From: a virus | Taxonomy: Duplodnaviria; Heunggongvirae; Uroviricota; Caudoviricetes | Virus record (IMG/VR): IMGVR_UViG_2778261644_000009 | Length of the DNA: 7,869 nucleotides | Direction: 5' to 3' (one strand) | Program-made: the position numbers and the translations under genes | Notes under the pieces: model-generated | The model's database searches: none | What the model was told of the DNA's origin: nothing | Seen by the model: only the letters and a program-made list of their open reading frames with translations | In this document: piece after piece, positions 7,738 through 7,869 of the stretch | How positions within the stretch are numbered: position 1 is the first letter of the stretch | Layout: each line of letters begins with the position of its first letter

Positions 7738-7869
7738 ATGGGGACGGCGGGGATTTTTAACAAAATGACAACAAATACTCCAGACAAAAACGTTCAAGCT
7801 GTTTTATCAAAAAAAAAAAAAAAAAAAAATCACAAAAAAAAAAAAAAAAAAAAAAAAAAAAAATACTTA
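7738..7869 (+). CDS. Possible ORF (3'-truncated by window end) reading through both poly(A) tracts to give poly-lysine runs; very uncertain
   Basis: ATG 7738 about 11 nt after AAGGA (7722-7726); translation MGTAGIFNKMTTNTPDKNVQAVLS-KKKKKK-NH-KKKKKKKKKK-YL...; no stop before the window end. Confidence 0.2.
   Translation, partial: MGTAGIFNKMTTNTPDKNVQAVLSKKKKKKNHKKKKKKKKKKYL
7809..7863. repeat. Two long homopolymeric A tracts: A21 (7809-7829), TCAC, A30 (7834-7863)
   Basis: Directly visible; by far the longest homopolymers in the window. Confidence 0.95.

Follow-up and report, generated by a model that had tools for sequence, protein, structure and literature searches.

The two long adenine tracts close to the 3' end of this window (the whole stretch of DNA analysed here, 7,869 bp), and the poly-lysine open reading frame that runs through them, are almost certainly sequencing or assembly errors at the ragged end of an E. 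coli contig from a draft assembly. The window is a whole contig, its interior but not its two termini is identical to independent sister assemblies, errors become denser towards the end with a bias to A, and the true gene at the site is conserved. Thus, the lysine runs, six residues and then ten, separated by Asn-His (K6-NH-K10), are a property of the database record and not of the organism, since positions 7706-7869 constitute a corrupted copy of a real locus. The real biology at this site is ordinary, with a conserved gene for a tail tube initiator beginning here. The features on which the argument depends are the following:

1-103, unstranded: degraded 5' contig end, with 9 differences, 2 of them indels, from the reference scaffolds L005 and L006, and none after
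5871-7703, plus strand: tape-measure-like gene, 610 aa, matching phrog_16051 (tail length tape measure, E=2e-53)
7695-7711, plus strand: hairpin GGCGGG-TAATT-CCCGCC, a perfect 6-bp GC stem around the stop codon of the tape-measure-like gene
7706-7869, unstranded: degraded 3' contig end, an error-laden copy of the true locus
7722-7726, plus strand: Shine-Dalgarno-like AAGGA, with a spacer of 11 nt to the ATG; real, its ACAAGGAAAATTATTATTATG context being the same in all relatives
7738-7808, plus strand: genuine 5' end of a gene for a putative Dit-like tail tube initiator, about 24 codons, with read errors already present
7809-7829, plus strand: tract of 21 A (A21), an artefact, aligned to true CAAAGCAGAACAAGATATAAAC, each non-A base having been called A
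7834-7863, plus strand: tract of 30 A (A30), an artefact, aligned to the A-rich true AAAAAACGAAAATAGCAAAGCTAATACAACAAAAGGCGAAAAT, the non-A bases having been substituted or dropped

In the deposited sequence, frame 1 from the ATG at 7738-7740 reads MGTAGIFNKMTTNTPDKNVQAVLS-KKKKKK-NH-KKKKKKKKKK-YL until the window ends, with TCAC separating A21 from A30. The sequence-only reading of this DNA had pointed to the ATG, to the AAGGA upstream of it and to a frame that stays open across both tracts, and these elements are indeed present in the record at the positions given above. The occurrence of A21 together with A30 in the deposited record is far above chance expectation; across about 260 kb of related loci from E. 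coli, Enterobacterales and phages, homopolymers never reach 10 bases, the longest being a single T9. The openness of the frame through the tracts is uninformative, because consecutive A residues can never spell a stop codon on this strand, and lysine runs are obtained through the tracts in all three forward frames.

The question of an artefact was decided by DNA comparison. The window matches, from position 1 to position 7869, the entire draft contig NLWU01000007.1 of the assembly GCA_002512025.1 (L008), and the A tracts stop 6 bases short of the physical end of this contig. Sister contigs were retrieved with the exact sequence of the upstream 610-aa protein, which is encoded identically in 16 contigs, the window's own included. 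Two of them, L005 (ERZ28575759 scaffold_214, record coordinates 21332-43164, reverse strand) and L006, are ENA metagenome scaffolds, and another, L004, is an NCBI genome. Over positions 104-7705 of the window (7,602 positions), L005 and L006 show 0 differences from it, and L004 a single one, at position 1146. In contrast to this interior, both termini diverge. A gapped alignment reveals 28 differences from L005 and L006 within 7706-7845 (22 substitutions and 6 indels), and the last 24 bases, 7846-7869, have no significant alignment to the reference. Taken with the 9 at the opposite end, all 37 differences lie in the two termini, an arrangement with a chance of about 1e-54 if they were spread uniformly.

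The damage at the 3' end follows a recognisable course. Without gaps, the mismatches counted per 20 nt towards the end are 2, 1, 4, 6, 4, 9, 10 and 8, and the 108 bases that precede the tracts contain 21 such mismatches, in 16 of which the preceding true base has been copied. Among the substitutions of the gapped alignment, 17 of 22 are changes to A. The true sequence under the tracts is an A-rich coding stretch (57% A), and the interrupting TCAC aligns to a true TCTAC, so that the bases other than A that survive, TC-AC, still follow the original order; the tracts therefore look like a degraded copy of the locus and not like an insertion. Beyond A30, the terminal ATACTTA gives only a loose fit to the true ATGGATTTG.

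The canonical sequence of the relatives at this site, ...CAGGCTGTTTACAAAGCAGAACAAGATATAAAC..., is found with no tract in 10 of the 10 that cover it (L001-L006 and L009-L012). Seven sister contigs (L004-L006 and L009-L012) and three complete E. coli genomes present this normal sequence together with an intact coding sequence for a protein of 237 aa, and an eighth sister contig, L007, stops before the gene. As for the corrupted junction, CAAGCTGTTTTATCAAAAAAAAAA, it had 0 exact matches in genome_contigs, a collection of species-representative genomes, or in metagenome_contigs.

Taking this pattern as a guide, it can be proposed that both ends of the contig were assembled from read tails of poor quality. 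In the final ~165 bases, base calling would increasingly lose register and drift to 'A', and this drift would convert a coding stretch that is naturally rich in A into two long A runs. As to the physical cause, the pattern of errors resembles the dephasing or signal loss of sequencing-by-synthesis reads. We infer this cause from the pattern in the assembled sequence of a single contig; a literature search for GCA_002512025 and NLWU01, aimed at the sequencing platform, yielded no paper. The likeness to contig-end errors derived from low-quality read tails is close, including a feature located at the contig terminus, a perfect interior with both termini degraded, an error rate that climbs, miscalls that are copies of the previous base or A, and the absence of any independent sequence that reproduces them. 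The case differs from them in the unusual length of the A runs (21 and 30), which is accounted for by the A content of the underlying true sequence.

The gene hidden under this damage is well defined in the relatives. In L001-L006 and L009-L012 the homologous ATG, in the same AAGGA context, opens a coding sequence of 714 nt for a protein of 237 aa, labelled 'phage baseplate protein' in RefSeq. Residues 71-198 of a full-length relative match the Pfam family Dit_like (PF21821) with 101.9 bits (cut-off 24.2; E=3e-29), the window itself holding only codons 1-24, which lie ahead of this domain. The protein also matches phrog_817, and its closest solved structure is PDB 21vq_N (Phi92_gp135, E=3e-79), followed by the tube-initiator structures 9cuy_K (E=3e-13) and 7yfz_a (the Pam3 tube initiator, E=2e-6). 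No NCBIfam match was obtained for the Dit-like, tape-measure-like, capsid or replication proteins. Identity to gp135 of phage phi92 (236 aa) is 61% over 205 residues. In the cryo-EM study of phi92, gp135 forms a hexameric tube initiator at the centre of the baseplate (PMC13450770). By homology, the 237-aa protein is a predicted Dit-like tail tube initiator. The suggestion that ATG 7738 and its AAGGA could begin a gene was consequently correct, the open reading frame being conserved in every relative, and the extension downstream that had been put forward as a check leads in the relatives to a sizeable conserved frame, the 714-nt coding sequence just described.

The similarity to phi92 extends to gene order, given that here the tube initiator gene comes after a tape-measure-like gene, as gp135 comes after gp134, and both initiators have the same Pfam domain. 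However, the phi92 gene belongs to a 148-kb lytic myophage and the present one to an element of ~12 kb that is integrated at tRNA genes and has an integrase. Moreover, the predicted initiator of the element has 10 additional N-terminal residues (MATAGILTIR).

What did not survive the comparison is the lysine-rich segment. K6-NH-K10 takes the place of YKAEQDINSTKNENSKANTTKGENGF of the true protein, whose N-terminal part reads there YKAEQDINST..., an ordinary mixed sequence in assemblies that share 7,602 identical bases with the window. The residues overwritten by lysines are conserved, an INSTxNxN...KGENGF core being kept in Phytobacter, Enterobacter, Buttiauxella, Kluyvera, one proteobacterial metagenome-assembled genome and phi92 gp135; no lysine run exists in those five homologue lineages or in gp135. 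In addition, indels located before and inside the tracts have a net effect that puts the window out of frame with the true gene from about position 7802, so the apparent open reading frame beyond ~7802 is not in the frame of the gene.

The tape-measure-like protein is 53% identical to phi92 gp134 over its N-terminal 66 aa, and its gene ends 34 nt before the ATG of the tube initiator. The hairpin that surrounds its stop codon is located at L005:11825-11841 in the true sequence, 27 nt ahead of this ATG, and its folding energy, computed on the true sequence, is -13.1 kcal/mol (z = -2.7). The lack of a T run after it sets it apart from canonical terminators, and it may have a role in mRNA stability or translational coupling. 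The first read error of the 3' end, a C to T change at 7706, falls in the 3' arm of this hairpin.

The sequence-only reading had proposed that consecutive AAA codons would make ribosomes slide and stall, making expression stochastic and dependent on tract length, as in a built-in switch. Such sliding is real in E. coli (Koutmou et al. 2015, PMC4363877), and lysine poly(A) tracks that slide or stall ribosomes were also the subject of Arthur et al. 2015 (PMC4552401). The deposited window resembles these tracks in its 6 and 10 consecutive AAA codons; the difference is that the AAA runs are absent from the real gene, which leaves the mechanism without a substrate. The idea of a switch governed by tract length finds no support either, as no relative has a tract or a length polymorphism. 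A similar comparison can be made with phase-variable homopolymeric contingency loci, which vary by slipped-strand mispairing and with which the window shares a long homopolymer in the 5' part of a surface or structural gene. At such loci the flanks should be normal, with only the length of the tract varying. Here, by contrast, the flanks are corrupted too, with 21 mismatches in 108 flanking bases against 100% identity in the interior, and the E. coli relatives have neither a tract with variable length nor any homopolymer of at least 10 bases.

Three other explanations have been considered for the tracts. The one closest to contig-end errors, and equally an artefact, is a chimeric end, with a genuine read fused to a foreign molecule that contains poly(A), such as a contaminant with a poly(A) tail, a tip of the assembly graph, or read-through into adapter or beyond the template. 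With four-colour Illumina chemistry, reads are well known to end in poly(A) once the template runs out, and the lack of a significant alignment for 7846-7869 would agree with such a junction. However, the errors build up gradually from 7706 with no sharp breakpoint, and the residual TC-AC keeps the order of the true TCTAC, which makes a chimera very improbable. It is less probable still that the tracts are genuine in one strain, slippage having expanded the A-rich N-terminal segment into a hypermutable on/off switch based on ribosome sliding. The 57% A of the true sequence is a conceivable seed for slippage, long homopolymers break assemblies, which would account for a contig ending there, and the sliding of ribosomes on AAA runs is a documented process in E. 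coli (PMC4363877). Nevertheless, the divergence begins ~100 nt before the tracts and affects the intergenic hairpin as well as the initial codons, with point substitutions and indels that have no relation to slippage, and damage of the same kind exists at the opposite contig end. As 7,602 interior bases are 100% identical, there was no time for about 20 real mutations to accumulate in 100 nt. Furthermore, conservation of the overwritten residues extends from E. coli to Phytobacter, Kluyvera and phi92, the junction appears in no other sequence scanned and related loci are free of homopolymers of 10 or more bases.

A third possibility is true hypermutation directed at the 5' end of the tail gene, for example through a diversity-generating retroelement or some other mutagenic process. 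It would fit with the clustering of the changes, and tail and baseplate proteins are classic targets of those retroelements. However, retroelements turn template A into any base and here the reverse is observed, other bases having become A; no reverse transcriptase or template repeat was found in the element, the changes include indels and reach non-coding sequence, and the other contig end suffers the same kind of damage. This is the most remote of the explanations, with a probability close to nil. Errors at a ragged contig end thus almost certainly account for the tracts, and the K6-NH-K10 reading frame with its stochastic switch, as a database artefact, is unfit to be used as a seed in searches for poly(A) switches or to be carried forward. 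The case also teaches that homopolymers adjoining contig ends need to be checked against sister assemblies before they are interpreted.

The only part of this locus that merits more attention is the surrounding element of ~12 kb, which may be a satellite of phi92-like phages that has so far escaped recognition. This integrative element measures 12.1-12.5 kb (full coordinates L005:2003-14102, L002:391-12934 and L003:479-12873), and the window forms its central 7.9 kb. It is flanked by direct repeats of a tRNA 3' end, from tRNA-Thr in L005, tRNA-Leu in L002 and tRNA-Gly in L003, and the copy in L001 is inserted inside srsR. Of 5,426 complete E. coli genomes, 742 contain sequence that matches it (in 195 cases with at least 80% coverage), often in 2-4 places per genome, and E. 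coli NC101 and NGF1 are among the carriers of the element. A near-identity search for a known phage or plasmid corresponding to the window gave short matches only, and an Rfam scan of the element detected only the flanking tRNA-Thr.

The gene content of the element includes a tyrosine integrase, an O-like replication initiator, a major capsid protein, a tape-measure-like protein and the tube initiator, and the searches of it revealed no terminase, portal, sheath or tube gene. The major capsid protein is of the lambda-E type and highly divergent, at most 26% identical to that of any phage in the collection. The cargo is ~95% identical at the DNA level among L001-L005, yet these copies have different tyrosine integrases, encoded downstream of the window, and different insertion sites, which suggests modular swapping of integrases among them.

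A 55-aa open reading frame at window positions 1566-1733 is 100% identical in protein, and ~99% in DNA, to muut_153 of Escherichia phage muut, a lytic phi92-like phage (Justusliebigvirus) of 146 kb. The matching region covers positions 1554-2138 of the window, and the start of the adjacent replication gene shares 90-95% identity with phages Mt1B1_P17 and BI-EHEC. These identities point to a recent exchange of DNA between the element and phi92-like phages. The content of the element would fit what is expected of a satellite of such phages, owing to its own homologues of capsid, tape-measure and tube-initiator proteins, its lack of terminase, portal, sheath and tube genes, and the muut_153 reading frame. 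Hence the tentative proposal, which we consider doubtful at present, that it could represent an undescribed class of phage satellites that parasitise large virulent phi92-like myophages (Stephanstirmvirinae) and bring their own head and tail-core parts. Among the papers searched, none pertinent was found on satellites that exploit Stephanstirmvirinae, phi92 or rV5-like phages, or on satellites with tape measure or tube initiator genes. The paper on Tai, 'tail assembly inhibition' (PMC11364771), does not deal with this element.

At the 5' end of the window, iteron-like repeats TTAGACACCCCCACAGAAwwCTGTTA, which contain the palindrome CAGAAnnCTG, are located at positions 3-28, 94-119 and 117-142 (also at 620-639), ~1.6 kb upstream of the gene for the O-like replication initiator. 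They are likely to form the putative origin of the element, and they probably explain the break of the assembly at the start of the contig. In the ~1.2 kb between 150 and 1357 there is no convincing open reading frame, and several short direct repeats are found, including a perfect 18-mer repeat, AATTCCACTTCCTACATT, at 438-455 and 543-560.

Finally, three records annotated as 'Campylobacter phage', A150, A145 and C3 (MG065639, MG065645 and MG065656; 146 kb), give exactly the match to the tape-measure-like protein that E. coli phi92-like phages give, with 36.2% identity and the same coordinate span, and the host labels of these records seem doubtful.
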